Shown here piece after piece: positions 3,649 to 28,789 of a DNA stretch of 32,000 nucleotides (positions are counted from its first letter, which is position 1; each line of letters opens with the position of its first letter). The stretch spans positions 1 to 32,000 of the forward strand of contig DASRFS010000026.1 of assembly GCA_035651435.1 (NCBI GenBank). Direction: 5' to 3'. The translations under genes were made by a program, and so were the position numbers. The notes under the pieces are model-generated. The model saw only the letters and a list, made by a program, of their open reading frames with translations, did not search any database and was not told the origin of the DNA. Source of the DNA: Patescibacteria group bacterium (GTDB lineage: Bacteria; Patescibacteriota; Microgenomatia; Levybacterales; UBA12049).

Positions 3649-5456
3649 ACAATTCCCTGGGAGCGTTTTCTTTTTTCCTCAACCATATCCAAAATCTTTT
3701 TTCTTATCCTGATATTTTTAGGAGTTACCTCTACTAATTCGTCGTCTGCTATAAACTCAAGCGCATTTTCCAAACTCATTACTTTTGGGGTATTAAAATG
3801 CTCCATTCCGCCTTCTCCTTTGGATCTCATATTGCTCAGTTGTTTTTCTTTACAAACATTAACCGCCATATCATCCGATCTGGAGTTTTGTCCGATAACT
3901 TGGCCTTTATATACATGCACCGCAGGCCCGACAAACAATTGTCCTCTGTCCTGCGCGTTAATAAGTCCGTATAAAGAAGTAACACCGGTTTCGTGAACCG
4001 TCAAAGACCCTTGTTCTCTTTCGTGGAAATATCCATTATCTTTATCGTACTTTTCAAAAGAAGTATTAATAATTCCAAGACCTCTTGTATCCGTTACGAA
4101 TTCGCTCCTATATCCAAAAAGCCCCCGTGTTGAAATTATAAATTCCATATAAGTTATTCCGTTTTCGGATTTCATATCCTGTAACTCTCCGCGTCTTCCC
4201 CCGAGCTTTTGCATTACGGTTCCGCTGAATTCATCTGGAGTTTCAATAAAAACCCGCTCATATGGAACTAACCTTTCTCCGTCTATAACTTTGTCTATAA
4301 CCTGAGGTCTACCAACCTGGAATTCGTAACCCTCTCTTCTCATTCTCTCGATAAGAATTGCCAAATGAAGTTCTCCTCTTCCCGAAACCGTCCATCCGCC
4401 TTTTGGATTATCCTCGACTCTTAAAGCCATGTCTGTTTCAAGTTCCTTATGCAACCTCTCTCTAATTTGCCTTGATGTTTTGTATTCTCCTTCTTTGCCT
4501 GCAAACGGCGAGTCGTTAACCATAAAAGTGACGCGGATTGTTGGCTCTTCCACATCCAAAAGCGGCAACGCCACCGGATTCTCTACATCCGCAATCGTTT
4601 CTCCGATTGCAGGAACTTGAATTCCGGCTATTGCAACAATATCCCCGCTTGATGCTTCTTCAACTTCCACCTTTTCCAGTCCAACAAATGTAACAAGAGA
4701 AGTAATCTTGCTTCTTATAAATTGATTCTCTCTTGTAATTTGGATAACGTCCTGGCCGTTTTGGATTTTTCCGTTGTAAATTCTTCCGGTTGCGATTCTG
4801 CCTTTATGAAGATCGCTGCCAAGACTTGTTATTAAAAACTGCAGTGGTTTTTTTTCGTCTCCCGATGGAGGAGGAACTTCTTTTAGGATTGTTTCAAAAA
4901 CCGGAGAGATATCTTTCATTGCGCTTAAATCAGGGGTCAAGCCTGCCTTACCAAGCTTTGCGGATGCAAAAATCGTTGGAAAAGTTGCAACTTCATCGCT
5001 TGCTCCCAAGTCTAAAAACAGATCGAGAGTTTTATCCAAAACATAATGAACTCTCGCATCGGACTTATCGATTTTATTAACAACAACAATTATTTTGTGC
5101 CCCATCTTTAGTGCCTTCTTTAAAACAAATCTTGTTTGGGGCATCGGACCTTCCTTTGCATCCACCAAAAGCAGGCATCCGTCTGCCATCTTTAAAACTC
5201 TTTCTACTTCTCCACCAAAATCGGCATGTCCCGGGGTATCGATTATGTTAATTTTTGTGTCTTTCCAAACAACAGAGGCGTTCTTGGAGAAAATTGTGAT
5301 TCCCCTCTCTTGTTCCAGCTCGTTACTATCCATAATAAGAGAGTCGGAAACACTTTTATTTAGCTTGGTTTGCGATTGCTTTAAAAGCGCGTCGACTAAA
5401 GTCGTCTTTCCATGGTCAACGTGAGCGATAATTGCAATATTTCGAATATTTAACAT
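3645..5456 (-). CDS. typA: Translational GTPase TypA/BipA
   Basis: N-terminus IRNIAIIAHVDHGKTTLVDALL, DTPGHADFGGEVER, NKID. The 603-aa length is typical of BipA. AGGA SD lies 4 nt before the ATG. Confidence 0.95.
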   Translation of the reverse strand: MLNIRNIAIIAHVDHGKTTLVDALLKQSQTKLNKSVSDSLIMDSNELEQERGITIFSKNASVVWKDTKINIIDTPGHADFGGEVERVLKMADGCLLLVDAKEGPMPQTRFVLKKALKMGHKIIVVVNKIDKSDARVHYVLDKTLDLFLDLGASDEVATFPTIFASAKLGKAGLTPDLSAMKDISPVFETILKEVPPPSGDEKKPLQFLITSLGSDLHKGRIATGRIYNGKIQNGQDVIQITRENQFIRSKITSLVTFVGLEKVEVEEASSGDIVAIAGIQVPAIGETIADVENPVALPLLDVEEPTIRVTFMVNDSPFAGKEGEYKTSRQIRERLHKELETDMALRVEDNPKGGWTVSGRGELHLAILIERMRREGYEFQVGRPQVIDKVIDGERLVPYERVFIETPDEFSGTVMQKLGGRRGELQDMKSENGITYMEFIISTRGLFGYRSEFVTDTRGLGIINTSFEKYDKDNGYFHEREQGSLTVHETGVTSLYGLINAQDRGQLFVGPAVHVYKGQVIGQNSRSDDMAVNVCKEKQLSNMRSKGEGGMEHFNTPKVMSLENALEFIADDELVEVTPKNIRIRKKILDMVEEKRKRSQGIV

Positions 5457-5820: not shown

Positions 5821-7017
5821 TTAGGAGAGTCTCTTAAGAGTTTCTTCTTTTCCCAAGATTTCCAAAGATTGAGGCAGCGGAAGCCCGGACTCGGATCCCG
5901 TAAAGATTTTGTAAAATAATTTCATTCTCACTCCCTCTTTTTCAAGAACATTTTTAAATGCAAAAAGAATATCCTCAGCTTTCCAGATTTTAAGATTTTT
6001 AAGCTCGAGATGTAGAACTTTTACAACTTTTTTTTCTTTGTCCGAAAATTTTACATCCGGTTTTTCAGAGAAAAATCCGGTGAGTTTTTCAAAATCTCTA
6101 AGCGTTGTCATTCTCGATTGCGCAAGAGAAACCAAATCCTCCTTTTTTGAATCTAATCGCTTTGCCAATTCCGAAACCGGGAGTTTTCTAATCCATTCTC
6201 CATTCATCCACGCGAGTTTCCCAATATCAAAAACCGGGTTTGCGACGTTTATATCTTCCAGTTTGAATTTCTTAACCATCTCACCCATCGCCATAATCTC
6301 TTCGTCTCCTCCCGGATTCCAGCCCAAAAGAGCCGTGTAATTATTGACTGCTTCGGCTAGATATCCTTCGTCTCTATAATCCAGCGCAGATTTCGCACCA
6401 TGCCTTTTAGAAAGTTTTGTATGGTCGTTCCCTAAAATAACGGGGAGATGGCAAAAAACTGGGACATCCCAACCAAAAAGTTCATAAAGATAAAGATGCT
6501 TGGGAGTTGATGATATCCATTCTTCTCCTCGCATAACGTGGGATATTTCCATAAGATGATCGTCCACGACATTTGCCAAATGGTAGGTTGGGAATCCATC
6601 GGACTTCAGAATAACAAAATCCTCGACATCTTTTCCTTTAAAAGAAATCCTTTTGTTCCCCACCGCGTCCGTCCAAGAAAATTCTCTTTCTTCCGGCAAG
6701 TGAATATAAACCGCACCGTCTTTTTCGTAGGCTTTTTTTGTTTTAATGAGTTCGTTAACGTGCTTTTTATAAATTTCGATCCTTTCGGATTGTTTGAATT
6801 TTTTATCGGGCACTAGATCAAGCCATTTTAGGATTTCGTCAATTGCTTCCTCTGAACCCTTTACCAATCTTTTTTGATCCGTATCTTCAATCCTTAAGAA
6901 AAACTCACCTTTGTTTGCCTTTGCCAGAAGAAAGGAAAAAAGCGCTGTTCTGGTGCTTCCAATATGAGGGATTCCTGTTGGGCTTGGGGCAAATCTTGTG
7001 CGAACCATCATTTGCAT
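5821..7017 (-). CDS. gltX: Glutamyl-tRNA synthetase, compact form
   Basis: RFAPSPTGIPHIGSTRTAL (HIGH-type), KLSKRHG (KMSKS-type), DDHLMEISHVMRGEEW, and a C-terminal anticodon-binding-like tail ending LGKEETLKRL. In-frame alternative ATGs lie at 7011 and 7008. Confidence 0.9.
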   Translation of the reverse strand: MQMMVRTRFAPSPTGIPHIGSTRTALFSFLLAKANKGEFFLRIEDTDQKRLVKGSEEAIDEILKWLDLVPDKKFKQSERIEIYKKHVNELIKTKKAYEKDGAVYIHLPEEREFSWTDAVGNKRISFKGKDVEDFVILKSDGFPTYHLANVVDDHLMEISHVMRGEEWISSTPKHLYLYELFGWDVPVFCHLPVILGNDHTKLSKRHGAKSALDYRDEGYLAEAVNNYTALLGWNPGGDEEIMAMGEMVKKFKLEDINVANPVFDIGKLAWMNGEWIRKLPVSELAKRLDSKKEDLVSLAQSRMTTLRDFEKLTGFFSEKPDVKFSDKEKKVVKVLHLELKNLKIWKAEDILFAFKNVLEKEGVRMKLFYKIFTGSESGLPLPQSLEILGKEETLKRLS

Positions 7018-7041
7018 TGTACTCTACCCTCAAACTATACT
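7012..7041 (+). promoter_or_regulatory. Candidate promoter TTGCAT-18-TATACT ending 6 nt before the ATG at 7048
   Basis: The -35-like TTGCAT (7012-7017) lies inside the gltX start region. TATACT is at 7036-7041. No SD precedes the ATG. Confidence 0.35.
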
Positions 7042-7047
7042 CAATAT

Positions 7048-8064
7048 ATGCCTACCTTAAGTCAGCTTACCGGAGAAACACGAACAATTTTTAAAATATC
7101 TGGAATTATTTTAGGAGTTATTTTTATAGTCTTTATCGCTGTGACCATAAAAAACATTCTTTTTCCTCCGCCCCCTCCCCCTCCTACGGTAACTTTTGGA
7201 AAAATCCAAGTAAGCTTACCAACTTCTTCAAAAGTTTTCGATTATAAGATCGATACTGTAACAAATTCTCTTCCAAAAATAGTTTCTCAGGAAAAGGTTT
7301 ATAAAATAGAGGATCAAAAAGCCGATCTTCTGGCGCTAAGCCGTGCTACCGATAGAGTTAGACAGGTAGGGTTTACCGACAAGGGAATAAAAATTTCTGA
7401 AAACGTTTATCAATGGCTGGATTCTTCAACCGGACGAACCCTTACTATGAACATTATGGACAATAACTTCAATATGATTTCAAATTTCATTCAAGGACAA
7501 AATACGCCGCAGTTTGTGGGGAATGCCAACACTGCAATTTCCGCTGCAAAAGATTTTTTAACCAGAATGGGTCTTTATAAACCAGACTTTGATGATTCAA
7601 AAACACAGGTTGCGCTTTTCTCCGTAAATAATTTTGCTCTAGCCCCTGCCAGCAGTATCTCGAACACACAAGTTATAAAAGTTTCTTTTTTTCAGAAAGA
7701 CATAAATGGAACTCCTGTTTTTTATCCCCAGACCGTCACGTCCCCTGTAAACCTTCTTATCGGAACCGTAAGGGGAGAAAATCAAGTTGTCGAGGCAAAC
7801 TTTTTCTTCCAAAAACCCTCCGCAACAAGCTCAACCTATCCGTTAAAAACAACTCAAGAAGCTTTTGATGATCTCAAAAGTGGGAATGCGTATATCACGT
7901 CCTACGCCGGGCAAAATCAAACTGTTTCGATTAGAAGAGTTTATTTGGGGTACTTTATCTCGGAAAAGAAACAGGACTTCTTATTCCCAATCGTGGTTTT
8001 TGAAGGAAACGATTCTTTCCAGGCTTTTGTATCCGCAGTTAAGGATGAATGGGTAAATAAGTAA
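7048..8064 (+). CDS. Membrane-anchored hypothetical protein with a poly-proline spacer
   Basis: The start was moved to the ATG at 7048, because the listed 6964 start overlaps gltX on the other strand. It has an N-terminal TM helix (ISGIILGVIFIVFIAVTI), then PPPPPPP, then a roughly 290-aa extracytoplasmic region with no recognised domain. Confidence 0.65.
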   Translation: MPTLSQLTGETRTIFKISGIILGVIFIVFIAVTIKNILFPPPPPPPTVTFGKIQVSLPTSSKVFDYKIDTVTNSLPKIVSQEKVYKIEDQKADLLALSRATDRVRQVGFTDKGIKISENVYQWLDSSTGRTLTMNIMDNNFNMISNFIQGQNTPQFVGNANTAISAAKDFLTRMGLYKPDFDDSKTQVALFSVNNFALAPASSISNTQVIKVSFFQKDINGTPVFYPQTVTSPVNLLIGTVRGENQVVEANFFFQKPSATSSTYPLKTTQEAFDDLKSGNAYITSYAGQNQTVSIRRVYLGYFISEKKQDFLFPIVVFEGNDSFQAFVSAVKDEWVNK

Positions 8065-25135: not shown

Positions 25136-25981
25136 TTAGGGACTTTTGAAATCAAGAAGACCTTCTTGCAAGGTCTTCATTTTGATCCCCAATCTACTAA
25201 TTTTATCATTTTTTAGGTTCAAATGAAAACCCCTTTCAGCTCTTCCTTTAAAATAATCTGCTCTCGTTGTTTTAGCAATCTTAGATTTACTAAAACCAAA
25301 TGTATCGGCAATTAAAACTGCCGTATCGAAAGGAGAAATGGGCTGGCTCCCCGTAACATGGAATACTCCGGTTTGTTCTTTTTGAACAAGTGAGTCTAAC
25401 GCAAAGGCAATATCATCGATAAACGTAGGGACCATAATATGGTCTGTTACCATCGTGAGGTTTTCGCCTTTTTTGAATTTTTCAATCAACGCTCTAATAA
25501 AATCAGTCCGGACAAACTTCGTTCTATACGGATAAGCAATTCTTGCAATTATATATTCCGCTCCGGAATTTTGAACAGCAAGTTCTCCTTCGTATTTTGT
25601 CTTTCCGTACCAATTTATGGGATTGGGCGTATCGTCTTCGACATAACTTTCCTTTTCCCCATCGAAGACAAAATCAGTCGAAACATAGATCAATTTTTTT
25701 TTGAGTTTTAAACATGCCTCGGAAACGTTCTTTGTTCCCTCAACATTTATTTTCCATGCTTCCCCTTGCTCTCCGAGATTCTTGTCTTCTTCGCAACCGT
25801 CAACATGGGCTTTTGCGGCCAAGTGAAGAACTATTTGGGCATTTGAATTTTCTATGCGATTTTGAATTGAGTCCTTTTGGGTTATATCTTCTGTCGAGGA
25901 ATCAAATTCGTAATTGTCTTTTAGAAGTTCTACAATTCTCGATCCAACTAAACCTGATCCCCCTGTAACTAAAATCTTCAT
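25136..25981 (-). CDS. rfbD: dTDP-4-dehydrorhamnose reductase-like NDP-sugar 4-ketoreductase (RmlD family)
   Basis: MKILVTGGSGLVGS, STDFVFDG, YGKTKYEGE (YxxxK). ATGA overlap with the rfbB stop. Confidence 0.8.
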   Translation of the reverse strand: MKILVTGGSGLVGSRIVELLKDNYEFDSSTEDITQKDSIQNRIENSNAQIVLHLAAKAHVDGCEEDKNLGEQGEAWKINVEGTKNVSEACLKLKKKLIYVSTDFVFDGEKESYVEDDTPNPINWYGKTKYEGELAVQNSGAEYIIARIAYPYRTKFVRTDFIRALIEKFKKGENLTMVTDHIMVPTFIDDIAFALDSLVQKEQTGVFHVTGSQPISPFDTAVLIADTFGFSKSKIAKTTRADYFKGRAERGFHLNLKNDKISRLGIKMKTLQEGLLDFKSP

Positions 25982-28071
25982 GCATTATATTGTCTTTTAT
26001 AGTAATCTTTATAATCTCCGCTTTTTATTCTCTTCCACCAGTCCTCATTCTTTTTGTACCAATCGATAGTTTTCTCCAACCATTCATCAAAGTTATGCAT
26101 CGGATGCCATCCCAATTCATTTTTAACCTTAGACCAATCAACAGAATATTTTCTGTCATGTCCGGGTCTGTCTTTTACAAACTCAATATAACTTTCATCT
26201 TTTCCTAAAATTTTCAAAATCTTTTTTATTAAAGTCAAATGATTCATATCTTCCGTCATTCCTCCAACACAATAGGTTTCACCTATTTTCCCTTTTTCTA
26301 AAACTATCTCTATCGCTCTTACATGATCCTCGACATAAAGCCAATCTCTGACGTAAAGACCATCCCCATATAAAGGAACTTTTTTCTCTTCCAACAAATT
26401 GGTAATAGCAAGAGGAATTAACTTTTCCGGAAACTGATATGGACCAAAGTTATTTGAACAATTTGTAATAGTAATAGGAAGCTCATAAGTATGATAATAG
26501 GCATTTACCAAATGGTCGGATCCTGCTTTGGTTGCCGAATAAGGACTTCTTGGATCGTATTTTGTTTTTTCATTGAATTTTTCTTTTGACTCAAGGGTAA
26601 GCGCACCAAATACTTCGTCCGTATTGCCACAAAAAACAAATGTTCCATTTCGTTCTACAAGTAAGTTTTTATTTAGCGGAACCTTAATGCACCAAATTTT
26701 CCCATTATAATAACTTTTTGATACTTGTTGTAATTCTTTGCTTATTCGTATCGATCTATGTTGCCTTGTAACAGTTATGACATAGCTTTTCTTTCCCTTT
26801 ATAAATCTCCCTTTATAATAATTTCCTTCGATCTTTCTCTCAAATACATGGGGTGTAATACCTAGTTTTATACAAAGCTCGGAAAATGTTTCTACCAATC
26901 TCCAGCTTGATGTATATAATCTCGGATTATTGTTCCAGGATCCATCTGAATCAATTAATCCATCAAATAGCGCTTGTAAACTTTCTCTATCTGCTTCCAA
27001 CGCCCATTCAGGTATTTTTTTATTCAGTGCTCCTTTTCCGCAATCCTTGAGTATGCCCGAATAAGATTTTGAAGAAAAGTATAAGTGCTCACCAGCTTTT
27101 CCAGTGTGAGCATGCCAATTAATTTTTAAATCTGTAAGTGTTTTCTCCAGTCTATTTCTCCCCTTATCTTTAACTGGTATATCCAAAAATACTCTATATG
27201 AATGACTTATTGTATGCTGTTGATATCCGATATGGCTCATAGCTAAAAACTGACCTGTTTGAGAATCTCTTGATTGATACACATATTCAGTTTTACTTAA
27301 GCCAGATTTATTGGTGAATTTCTTTTTTTGATAGGCAAGAAAACCATCTCCTATAAAAACCCCAAGTAGATACATGAAGTTTTTATTAATTTTTACGTTG
27401 CTTTCCCATACTCCCTCCGGGAGAGAATTTACTGATCCAAGTTGACGAGCTTCTTTGAATATAAGTTTCTTTGTTTTAGTCGTCTGCAGGAGCATTCTAT
27501 GATTTGGTGTAACTTTCATATGTAATTTATTGGAATTAATAGCTATCATATCCCCTTGATAATCTTGTATAATAATTTTTTCTATCTTCTTCCACTCCAT
27601 GTTTTTCGTTTGCATATTGAGGGTCAAAACCTCATCTGTTTTTTCTAATTCCCAATAATACTTAAGACCTCTTTTTGTTAAAGCCCGCGTTTTTTCATCA
27701 TAGCAAGATATATGATGAAATCTTTTTACGTTTGCTTTTAGCGCAGCATCGAGCAAAATCTGGGTTCCTAAAACATTAGTTGTAACAAAAGGCGAAGGTT
27801 CTGAAATTGAGCGATCAACATGACTTTCTGCTGCGAAATGAACAACAGTATCGATTCCTGCCATGAGATTATTTACTGTCTGGGTGTCGCAAATATCACC
27901 TTTTACAAATTTGTAGTTTTTTGAGCTCTCAATATCCCTAAGATTTTCTAAATTCCCTGCATAAGTCAACTTATCCAAATTTATAACTTGATCTTCGGGA
28001 TGATTTTTGATCCAGTAGAGTATAAAATTTGAGCCGATAAATCCGGCTCCACCTGTTACAAGAATCTTCAT
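25978..28071 (-). CDS. rfbB: dTDP-glucose 4,6-dehydratase interrupted by an in-frame intein (precursor 697 aa; exteins 122 + 214 = 336 aa)
   Basis: The N-extein MKILVTGGAGFIGSNF...VVHFAAESHVDRS...FHHIS is followed, after the insert, by TDEVFG...YSATKAGSDH...RPGHDRKY. The start is set at the ATG at 28071, because the listed 28152 start would overlap rfbA. Confidence 0.9.
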   Translation of the reverse strand: MKILVTGGAGFIGSNFILYWIKNHPEDQVINLDKLTYAGNLENLRDIESSKNYKFVKGDICDTQTVNNLMAGIDTVVHFAAESHVDRSISEPSPFVTTNVLGTQILLDAALKANVKRFHHISCYDEKTRALTKRGLKYYWELEKTDEVLTLNMQTKNMEWKKIEKIIIQDYQGDMIAINSNKLHMKVTPNHRMLLQTTKTKKLIFKEARQLGSVNSLPEGVWESNVKINKNFMYLLGVFIGDGFLAYQKKKFTNKSGLSKTEYVYQSRDSQTGQFLAMSHIGYQQHTISHSYRVFLDIPVKDKGRNRLEKTLTDLKINWHAHTGKAGEHLYFSSKSYSGILKDCGKGALNKKIPEWALEADRESLQALFDGLIDSDGSWNNNPRLYTSSWRLVETFSELCIKLGITPHVFERKIEGNYYKGRFIKGKKSYVITVTRQHRSIRISKELQQVSKSYYNGKIWCIKVPLNKNLLVERNGTFVFCGNTDEVFGALTLESKEKFNEKTKYDPRSPYSATKAGSDHLVNAYYHTYELPITITNCSNNFGPYQFPEKLIPLAITNLLEEKKVPLYGDGLYVRDWLYVEDHVRAIEIVLEKGKIGETYCVGGMTEDMNHLTLIKKILKILGKDESYIEFVKDRPGHDRKYSVDWSKVKNELGWHPMHNFDEWLEKTIDWYKKNEDWWKRIKSGDYKDYYKRQYNA
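26623..27705 (-). mobile_element. Intein, 361 aa, with a LAGLIDADG homing-endonuclease domain
   Basis: It starts with a Cys codon (27703-27705) and has block B VTPNHR (TxxH). The two LAGLIDADG motifs are LLGVFIGDGFL and LFDGLIDSDGS. It ends ...NGTFVFCGN (Asn codon 26623-25), followed by the Thr codon at 26620-22. The exteins rejoin to the conserved HHIS-TDEVFG. Confidence 0.88.
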
Positions 28072-28075
28072 TGAG

Positions 28076-28789
28076 TTACTTTTTCTTAGTTGCCCAGAAG
28101 GAACCCGATTGGAAAAGACTATCGAAGGTTCCGGCATCGCTCCAAAAACCATTGAGCTTTGTCCAATTAAGTTTTCCTTCTTTAAGATATTCCTTGTTTA
28201 CATCGGTTATTTCCAATTCTCCGCGCCCAGATGGTTTTATATTTTTTATATGATCAAAAACCTTCGAATCATAAATATAAAGCCCGGTAATCGCTAGGTT
28301 ACTTTTTGGATCCTTAGGCTTCTCCTCTATTTCTTTAATTTTATCTCCCTCGACTTGAGCAACGCCAAATCTCTGCGGATCTTCGACTTCTTTTAGGAAT
28401 ACTAAAGCCCCGCCTTTGAAGTTCTTAACATCTTCCGAGATATCCGCATCGGTAGTATTGTCGCCTAAAATTACGGTCACGCTTTCTCCGTCTGCAAAAT
28501 CCTCCGCAAGAGACAGAGCATCTGCAATTCCTCCATCCGGTTTTTCCTGATATGCATATTCCAAATGTCTAAGCCCTACCTCTTTTCCGTTTTTTAGGAC
28601 TCCCAAAAAATGTCCGACATGCGGCCCGGATGTAACGATAAGAACATCTTTAATTCCCGCGTTAACAAGAGTTTGTATAGGATAAAAAATCATTGGCTTA
28701 TCGTAAACCGGAAGAAGATGCTTATTTGATACGTGAGTCAGAGGATAAAGCCTCGTGCCCAAACCTCCTGCTAAGATTACACCTTTCAT
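28076..28789 (-). CDS. rfbA: Glucose-1-phosphate thymidylyltransferase, short form (sugar-phosphate nucleotidyltransferase)
   Basis: MKGVILAGGLGTRLYPLT..NKHLLPVYDKPMIFYPI, LGDN, and EKP...SNLAITGLYIYD. At 237 aa it is shorter than the roughly 290-aa RmlA. Confidence 0.8.
   Translation of the reverse strand: MKGVILAGGLGTRLYPLTHVSNKHLLPVYDKPMIFYPIQTLVNAGIKDVLIVTSGPHVGHFLGVLKNGKEVGLRHLEYAYQEKPDGGIADALSLAEDFADGESVTVILGDNTTDADISEDVKNFKGGALVFLKEVEDPQRFGVAQVEGDKIKEIEEKPKDPKSNLAITGLYIYDSKVFDHIKNIKPSGRGELEITDVNKEYLKEGKLNWTKLNGFWSDAGTFDSLFQSGSFWATKKK

Follow-up and report, generated by a model that had tools for sequence, protein, structure and literature searches.

A probable class 1 intein with a nested LAGLIDADG endonuclease ahead of the catalytic Thr-Asp-Glu of dTDP-glucose 4,6-dehydratase in a Patescibacteria genome

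Inteins at active-site motifs are also found in enzymes of metabolism, outside replication, and InBase lists examples such as M. jannaschii UDP-glucose dehydrogenase and GlmS. The case described here involves a different host family and a different site. In contig DASRFS010000026.1 of a Patescibacteria group bacterium, of which the first 32,000 nucleotides were analyzed (hereafter the window), the gene for dTDP-glucose 4,6-dehydratase (rfbB, or rmlB) is interrupted in frame by 361 codons. The insert is very probably a class 1 intein with a nested two-motif LAGLIDADG homing endonuclease, and both splicing and homing are proposed for it. It is an ordinary kind of mobile element, in an RmlB site that is seemingly undescribed and common in metagenome-assembled genomes (MAGs). 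No description of an intein in RmlB or related dehydratases was found in the literature searched, a scope that left intein registries (InBase) outside; the text of the Novikova 2016 survey mentions no dehydratase or epimerase, and a search for literature on inteins in the Candidate Phyla Radiation (CPR) returned nothing relevant.

Two sets of described inteins bear directly on how this element is read. At block F position F:4, Asp is the commonest residue, followed by Cys and then by Trp, and the penultimate His (G:6) is missing from ~5% of functional inteins (PMC4031507). The gp51 recombination directionality factor (RDF) intein of mycobacteriophage Bethlehem, with a penultimate Gly, splices completely, and its splicing becomes slower when this Gly is converted to His (PMC5050341). 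The defining marks of class 3 are the lack of an N-terminal nucleophile together with Trp B:12, Cys F:4 and Thr G:5; in this class Cys F:4 is an obligate nucleophile and Thr or Ser is typical at +1 (PMC2807308).

The mechanically called ORF of rfbB extends over 25978-28152 on the minus strand. Its biological start is placed at the ATG at 28071 (MKILVTGGAGFIGS..., encoding MKILVTGG), because homologs begin at MKIL and the stop codon of the rmlA-like gene lies 4 nt ahead of this ATG. Residues 1-122 and 484-697 of the protein are RmlB-like and residues 123-483 form the insert; the ORF and its translation thus bear out an earlier note on this DNA, which had put the insert at 26623-27705 and divided 697 residues into 122, 361 and 214. 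The whole protein scores 458.7 bits against TIGR01181, the dTDP-glucose 4,6-dehydratase equivalog (cut-off 365.1); the match falls into two segments, of which the C-terminal begins at profile position 124. Joined, the exteins amount to 336 aa and align to solved RmlB structures (6bi4 at 4e-111, 8du1, 2hun, 1g1a and 1bxk) with no gap at the junction, where fhhiS↓TDEVfGal lies over vqvSTDEVYGsl (arrow, extein junction) and the ligated peptide would read ...FHHISTDEVFGAL.... Removal of the insert does, as had been suggested, restore STDEV(Y/F)G. The joined exteins carry the hallmarks of RmlB, with a TIGR01181 score above the curated cut-off, GGAGFIGS (GxxGxxG), S↓TDE and YSATK. In dTDP- and UDP-glucose 4,6-dehydratases the signature is [ST]DE-xn-Yx3K, of which Asp is the acid and Glu the base (PMC8987622). 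Because of this signature and the junction alignment, the insert is placed immediately ahead of the catalytic Thr, Asp and Glu, and Thr+1 equals the [ST] of the signature, consistent with its earlier designation as the active-site Thr.

The insert runs from CYDEKTRAL to NGTFVFCGN and is followed by TDEVFG. Its long open frame is not due to chance, which at this base composition would produce 361 open codons with a probability of ~7e-13 (own arithmetic). The motifs previously noted (Cys1, VTPNHR, LLGVFIGDGF(L), LFDGLIDSDGS, Asn361 followed by Thr+1, and YSATK downstream) are all present, as are the acidic residues at position 8 of both LAGLIDADG motifs, D120 and D254. Similarity to Hint and LAGLIDADG domains, which the earlier note had left to database searches, was found with Pfam, a PDB profile search and Foldseek. 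Pfam LAGLIDADG_3 (PF14528) matches the insert with 26.5 bits (cut-off 22.5), and there are weak matches to NCBIfam models containing inteins (RNA polymerase A'', Tes intein). A profile of 15 related inteins retrieves PI-PkoII (5e-16), TliVMA (1.5e-14), AceL NrdHF (1.5e-8), PI-SceI (7e-7) and KlbA (4e-5) from the PDB. The AlphaFold model computed from the same 15-intein alignment has a predicted local distance difference test score (pLDDT) of 88.4 and a predicted template modeling score (pTM) of 0.84; its top Foldseek matches are TliVMA (2.6e-15), PI-PkoII, PI-PfuI, PhoVMA and PI-SceI, and I-DmoI matches its endonuclease core (E ~6e-07 to 1e-05 for the crystal forms listed). Block-mean pLDDT in the endonuclease domain ranges from 64 to 98, with the lowest values around residues 131-170 and 291-330. 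The insert therefore unites the properties of an intein (in-frame removability, Hint fold, Cys1, T66 and H69 in block B, and Asn361 followed by Thr+1) with those of a two-motif LAGLIDADG endonuclease (acidic residues at position 8 of both motifs, I-DmoI-like fold). The endonuclease stretch (~residues 105-326) is deleted in two mini-intein relatives, P0017 and P0019. Base composition was rejected as a sign of foreign origin: the intein has 33.3% G+C against 36.1% and 34.1% in the exteins, with G+C at third codon positions taken as equal (27% vs 29%), and the full counts do not uphold a hint drawn from short samples (28% and 32% in the insert, 35% in an extein).

Table 1. Positions of the intein, its motifs, the exteins and the flanking genes in the window
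Feature	Position	Strand	Remarks
Intein, 361 aa (Cys1 ... Gly360-Asn361)	26623..27705	-	rfbB residues 123-483
Block A (CYDEKTRALTKRG), Cys1 = presumed first nucleophile	27667..27705	-	C1, D3, T10, G13 invariant in 41 allelic inteins
Block B (MKVTPNHRMLL): T66 = B:7, H69 = B:10, R70 = B:11, M71 = B:12	27487..27519	-	T-P-N-H and M71 invariant in 41 alleles
LAGLIDADG homing-endonuclease domain nested in Hint fold, ~residues 105-326 (bounds approximate)	26728..27393	-	
LAGLIDADG motif 1 (LLGVFIGDGF), D120 at position 8	27340..27369	-	D120 in 41/41 alleles
LAGLIDADG motif 2 (LFDGLIDSDGS), D254 at position 8	26938..26970	-	D254 in 37/41 alleles, window copy included
Block F (GKIWCIKVPLNKNLLVERNG), with W338, C339 (F:4), R352	26644..26703	-	W338, C339, R352 invariant in 41 alleles
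Block G (TFVFCGN), Gly360 penultimate, Asn361 C-terminal	26623..26643	-	G360, N361 invariant
rfbB/rmlB precursor ORF, 697 aa + stop	25978..28071	-	dTDP-glucose 4,6-dehydratase interrupted by intein
N-extein, 122 aa (Rossmann GGAGFIGS ... KRFHHIS)	27706..28071	-	Alignable with residues 1-122 in RmlB structures and in intein-free ortholog P0023
C-extein, 214 aa, begins T-D-E (catalytic Thr, acid Asp, base Glu), YSATK downstream	25981..26622	-	
rmlA-like nucleotidyltransferase, upstream neighbor, same operon	28076..28789	-	PF00483 at 4.8e-55
rmlD (dTDP-4-dehydrorhamnose reductase), downstream neighbor, start overlapping rfbB stop	25136..25981	-	PF04321 at 2.8e-59

Homologous genes provide both an empty site and further copies of the same allele, the two outcomes that the earlier note had envisaged. 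None of the listed nearest full-coverage homologs of the joined exteins carries an intein; they are 336-338 aa long and include P0023 (93% identical), P0024 (85%) and many Patescibacteria proteins (74-84%). In P0026, one further intein-free RmlB homolog, a segment of ~48 residues (KKIPIYGDGLYVRDW...GGLTQD) occurs twice in exact copy, which an assembly error probably explains. P0023 is encoded on the syntenic contig L043, with the gene order rmlA, NUDIX gene, rfbB, rmlD, UDP-glucose dehydrogenase gene, gmd and epimerase gene. Its rfbB shares 88.9% DNA identity with the window exteins and lacks exactly the 1083 bp of the insert, reading TTTCATCATATATCA↓ACGGACGAAGTATTTGGC where the window reads ...ATATCT↓[1083 bp]↓ACGGACGAAGTATTTGGT; the empty site is AAAAGGTTTCATCATATATCA↓ACGGACGAAGTATTTGGCGCT. 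A ratio of nonsynonymous to synonymous substitution rates (dN/dS) of 0.061 (dS 0.59) between the window exteins and this empty allele indicates strong purifying selection on host rfbB, and this in turn implies that the product works and must therefore be spliced; set against this, the value averages both lineages and is compatible with a very recent loss of function.

Within the intein family dN/dS is 0.06-0.15, and the similarities of inteins and exteins do not run in parallel. Loci L022 (labeled Clostridia) and L024 (Actinomycetota) have inteins that are 79% identical in exteins that are 63% identical, while L017 and L019, both from Armatimonadota, have 66% identical inteins in 88% identical exteins. 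A homing element would be expected to show this combination, read here from alignments, of sporadic presence and incongruence of intein and extein. Two loci from NPL-UPA2-type MAGs, L009 (4001-5143) and L010 (92-1234), are 100% identical in the intein and in 114 nt of N-extein, but in the C-extein blocks of 83-95% identity are mixed with blocks of 100%. The pair was rejected as proof of recent homing, since the mosaic C-extein fits homing, recombination or chimeric assembly alike.

The distribution of the allele is broad. A search with the intein alone returned 22 proteins, most of them extended SDR dehydratases (SDR, short-chain dehydrogenase/reductase) with junctions of the form S↓CYDEKTRA...F[CS]GN↓[TS][DS]EV; the nearest intein relative found is 62-68% identical, and one relative from JGI is auto-annotated as 'nucleoside-diphosphate-sugar epimerase/intein/homing endonuclease'. 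When 185,579 species-representative genomes were scanned with an alignment of 5 sequences including the junction residues, the allele was located at 42 loci, in at least 42 genomes from many phyla of bacteria and archaea. Every locus that could be parsed (40 whose contig holds both junctions, and L036 with the C-terminal junction only; L039 is unparsed) conforms to S↓C[YF]D...WC...F[CS]GN↓TDEV. The bacterial carriers include Levybacteria, Microgenomates, other Patescibacteria, Omnitrophica, Planctomycetota, Armatimonadota, Pyrinomonadaceae (Acidobacteriota), Chloroflexota and Actinomycetota, with some carrier MAGs labeled Gammaproteobacteria or Clostridia; the archaeal carriers comprise six lineages, Altarchaeum, Thermoplasmata, Diapherotrites, Nanoarchaeota, Atabeyarchaeia and Methanosarcinales. 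The occurrence of one allele in bacteria, including CPR, and in archaea, including DPANN and Asgard members, points to cross-domain transfer. The RmlB exteins of an archaeal MAG, L038 (Candidatus Altarchaeum), are 71% identical to those of the window, as close as those of CPR relatives (L002, from Levybacteria, was compared), a similarity suggesting that the entire gene crossed between domains, or else mis-binning. At another locus, L004 (CAZIPM010000001.1, ORF with match 4001-5137), the intein-bearing RmlB has a C-terminal extension of ~300 aa that has no Pfam match. Part of this extension (GGFPK...E...LEDDLG) is vaguely NUDIX-box-like; a NUDIX gene stands between rmlA and rfbB in L043.

More distant relatives occupy other hosts. 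Searched exhaustively with HMMER, a set of 1.84 billion representative proteins yielded 7210 matches at E <=1e-3, which represent inteins in general, and 144 at <=1e-30; many of the best 150 matches are 640-770 aa long with an intein beginning near residue 100-165. In the NAD synthetase NadE (P0009, P0011, P0012, P0013 and P0015), inteins 31-37% identical to that of the window lie between GY(F/Y) and the conserved TKYGDG motif; once joined, the P0011 exteins cover positions 2-242 of the 242 in PF02540. Other related-intein hosts, P0008 and P0022, are a DUF5131 protein (ILG↓...↓CTLETN) and a probable DNA methyltransferase, in which the intein directly follows NPPF and the EcoRI_methylase match is weak and below the Pfam cut-off. 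At the same SDR site, the mini-inteins of P0017 (155 aa) and P0019 (148 aa) have lost the endonuclease, and the +1 residue of P0019 is the Ser of a GMD-like motif, SSEVYG. A phage origin was rejected, as nothing beyond generic inteins, ~25% identical, came up by tblastn in 50,697 phage records.

Several observations weigh against the reading as a class 1 intein with homing. The hallmarks recognized in the earlier note stand, but the set is not fully canonical, a point it had overlooked. The penultimate residue is Gly360, leaving the usual His G:6 absent; F:4 is Cys339, which in the profile alignment takes the place of the F:4 Asp of PI-PkoII ('VYDLSV'); and Lys is found where the block F His (F:13) is usual, according to a manual alignment to Ssp DnaB block F. 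The splicing-domain models also match below their thresholds, with 32.7 bits for Pfam Intein_splicing (cut-off 35.8), 21 bits for Hint_2 (cut-off 28.4) and a weak 14 bits for TIGR01445. An invariant Cys F:4 with Thr or Ser at +1 resembles class 3 and leaves the first nucleophile uncertain. The seeds of the genome scan (F[SC]GNTDEV and E[KN][IVM]IIQDY) make the conservation of both stretches among the 42 loci partly a matter of construction. Finally, splicing, the order of its steps and endonuclease activity are all inferred from sequence and a predicted structure.

The unusual residues are nevertheless strongly conserved. Invariant in 41 alleles are C1, D3, T10, G13, T66-P-N-H69 and M71 in blocks A and B, D120 and D252 in the endonuclease motifs, and W338, C339, R352, G354, G360 and N361 in blocks F and G; G:5 is Cys359, replaced by Ser in 4 of 41. 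The wider family, counted in inteins from the 147 best representative proteins, has Cys at position 1 in 186 of 187, a GN ending in 174 of 175, Cys at F:4 in 120 of 127, and Ser (92), Thr (72) or Cys (10) at +1. Judged by this conservation, Gly G:6 and Cys F:4 with Ser/Thr+1 mark a clade, not decay. Members of the clade may be recognized by Cys1 and block B TxxH, by Trp-Cys as the invariant pair at F:3-4, and by a Gly-Asn terminus with Ser/Thr+1. Membership of class 3 was rejected, because Cys1 is present and only one residue of the Trp-Cys-Thr triplet is matched: B:12, which is Trp in class 3 inteins, is Met71 here, F:4 is Cys339 and G:5 is Cys359. The most likely mechanism is class 1 splicing in which other residues stand in for the missing helpers.

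Four other explanations can be set against this assignment, and they differ in which part of it they dispute. The chemistry would not be plain class 1 if Cys339 were itself catalytic, either through a class-3-like relay, in which the N-extein passes to a Cys F:4 thioester and then to Thr+1, or through a disulfide with Cys1 that makes splicing, and with it deoxy-sugar synthesis, redox-dependent. The invariance of Cys F:4 over the 41 alleles and its near-invariance in the wider family, the prevalence of Ser or Thr at +1 (164 of 174) and the missing His G:6 all fit such a role, as does the behavior of class 3 inteins, with their obligate nucleophile at F:4 and typical Thr/Ser+1 (PMC2807308). Against it, Cys1 is almost universal, the standard Thr and His of block B are kept, the class 3 triplet fails at B:12 (Met) and G:5 (Cys or Ser), the PDB profile matches are class 1 and 2 inteins with no class 3 structures among them, and Cys is a known F:4 alternative (PMC4031507); a catalytic Cys339 is thus improbable, if worth keeping in mind. 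It is correspondingly doubtful that the intein is a member of a large clade, undescribed to date and spread over bacteria and archaea, in which Cys F:4 is a working nucleophile or redox partner of Cys1. Were this so, the clade would constitute a mechanistic intermediate between classes 1 and 3, or a thiol switch gating deoxy-sugar synthesis. A considerably smaller chance attaches to the insert being a decayed, non-splicing remnant, with this rfbB copy dead or yielding only cleavage products. The loss of the canonical His G:6, Asp F:4 and His F:13, an Intein_splicing score just under the Pfam cut-off and the lack of an rmlC among window ORFs of at least 110 aa would all agree with decay, but the 697-codon frame is intact, the non-canonical residues are invariant over 41 alleles and a large clade, indicating selection, extein dN/dS is 0.06, the rmlA-rfbB-rmlD operon is intact, and a penultimate Gly is known to be compatible with splicing (PMC5050341).

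The alternative with the greatest claim, though still the less probable one, concedes splicing and disputes homing: the endonuclease would be inactive in this lineage, the intein inherited vertically and homing at an end. Decay of this kind does occur in the family, where the second catalytic Asp is lost in 4 of 41 alleles and mini-inteins without endonuclease exist, and even the nearest intein relative found is only 62-68% identical. On the other side are the D120, D254 and confidently folded endonuclease domain of the window copy, the low dN/dS of the family, which spans the whole intein, and a 93%-identical ortholog that lacks the intein. That the insert is not an intein at all, but a fused or inserted domain that the mature enzyme retains, or an endonuclease ORF carried by an intron, is scarcely credible. 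Nothing specific speaks for it apart from endonuclease motifs, which on their own are common to intron-encoded LAGLIDADG proteins; a Hint fold lies on both sides of the endonuclease, Cys1 and Asn-Thr fall exactly at the borders with the frame running on into both exteins, the catalytic S-TDE loop is split, and presence/absence polymorphism falls precisely on a codon boundary.

If the insert is a class 1 intein, the following sequence of events may be proposed. The 697-aa precursor would be translated in an inactive form because its active-site loop is split. Cys1 would form a thioester at the N-junction, aided by Thr66 and His69 of block B, and the N-extein would then be handed to the Thr+1 side chain. 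Cyclization of Asn361 would free the intein, and an O-to-N shift would rebuild the peptide bond in HHIS-TDEVFG. The products would be an active enzyme of 336 aa (~38 kDa) and the excised intein (~42 kDa). Substitutes for the helpers His G:6, Asp F:4 and His F:13 would presumably be Cys339, Arg352 and perhaps Arg70 (B:11). Spread and persistence would depend on homing, in which the endonuclease, both of whose catalytic Asp residues (D120 and D254) are kept in the window, would cut intein-free rfbB at the conserved TTTCATCATATATC(A/T)↓ACGGACGAAGTATTTGG and repair would copy the intein in.

The interrupted gene lies in a glycan cluster that comprises, in the window, the rmlA-like gene, rfbB, rmlD, UDP-glucose dehydrogenase, gmd, an SDR epimerase, a GT2-GtrA gene and a PMT_2 gene. 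The paralogous SDR genes of the window, gmd (ASSSEMFG) and rmlD (VSTDFVFD), are uninvaded. No rmlC (dTDP-4-dehydrorhamnose 3,5-epimerase) was found among window ORFs of at least 110 aa, despite the adjacent rmlA, rfbB and rmlD; the proposal in the earlier note that the deoxyhexose branch of this locus depends on splicing is sound, and the branch would probably be so dependent. Bacterial housekeeping genes are also present, encoding SecD/F, RecJ, TsaE, Sua5, a CCA-adding enzyme, BipA, and GluRS and AspRS-type synthetases. The GluRS-like ORF (window 5821-7017, minus strand) is short, at 398 aa, with a catalytic-domain match in two stretches, and it is overlapped by 54 nt by a 366-aa ORF (window 6964-8064, plus strand) that has no Pfam match. 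The exact 697-aa protein is already public, on a 62-kb contig in JGI/IMG and ENA. Its 90% cluster includes NCBI HZQ29762.1, 'GDP-mannose 4,6-dehydratase [Patescibacteria group bacterium]', with no mention of an intein; this name is at odds with the match of the exteins to the dTDP-glucose 4,6-dehydratase equivalog.

The basic picture of a standard mobile intein is unchanged by these results, which add a well-supported insertion site in an NAD-dependent sugar-nucleotide dehydratase, directly ahead of its catalytic Thr-Asp-Glu and outside the replication, repair and ATPase proteins in which inteins cluster. Length- or domain-based annotation pipelines will misjudge the rfbB gene, because a member of its cluster is named as a GDP-mannose 4,6-dehydratase and its intein goes unmentioned. 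The clade signature (Cys1 with Cys F:4, Gly G:6 and Ser/Thr+1) provides a natural test of the role of a block F Cys beside an N-terminal nucleophile, and natural mini-inteins of 148-155 aa with Thr or Ser at +1 might interest protein engineers.

Comparison with described systems places the window intein closest to the archaeal-type class 1 inteins (TliVMA/PhoVMA, PI-PkoII, PI-PfuI and PI-SceI), which are its best matches by both profile and fold. It shares with them the Hint fold with the endonuclease at the usual place, Cys1, the block B TxxH, the C-terminal Asn, a nucleophilic +1 residue and a site within the catalytic motif of a conserved enzyme. It differs in having only 11-17% identity to them in fold alignments, in its host, a sugar-nucleotide dehydratase as opposed to an ATPase, polymerase or ribonucleotide reductase, and in Gly rather than His at G:6, Cys rather than Asp at F:4 and the lack of a block F His. 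The penultimate Gly and the Cys1 class 1 layout recall the Bethlehem gp51 RDF intein (PMC5050341), whose host protein is unrelated; phage inteins are in any case only ~25% identical to that of the window. Class 3 inteins, with the Bethlehem DnaB intein as prototype (PMC2807308), have Cys F:4 and Thr/Ser+1 in common with the window intein, but they lie mostly in helicase and ATPase P-loops, whereas the window intein, in a dehydratase active-site loop, has an invariant Cys1, Met B:12 and Cys or Ser at G:5.

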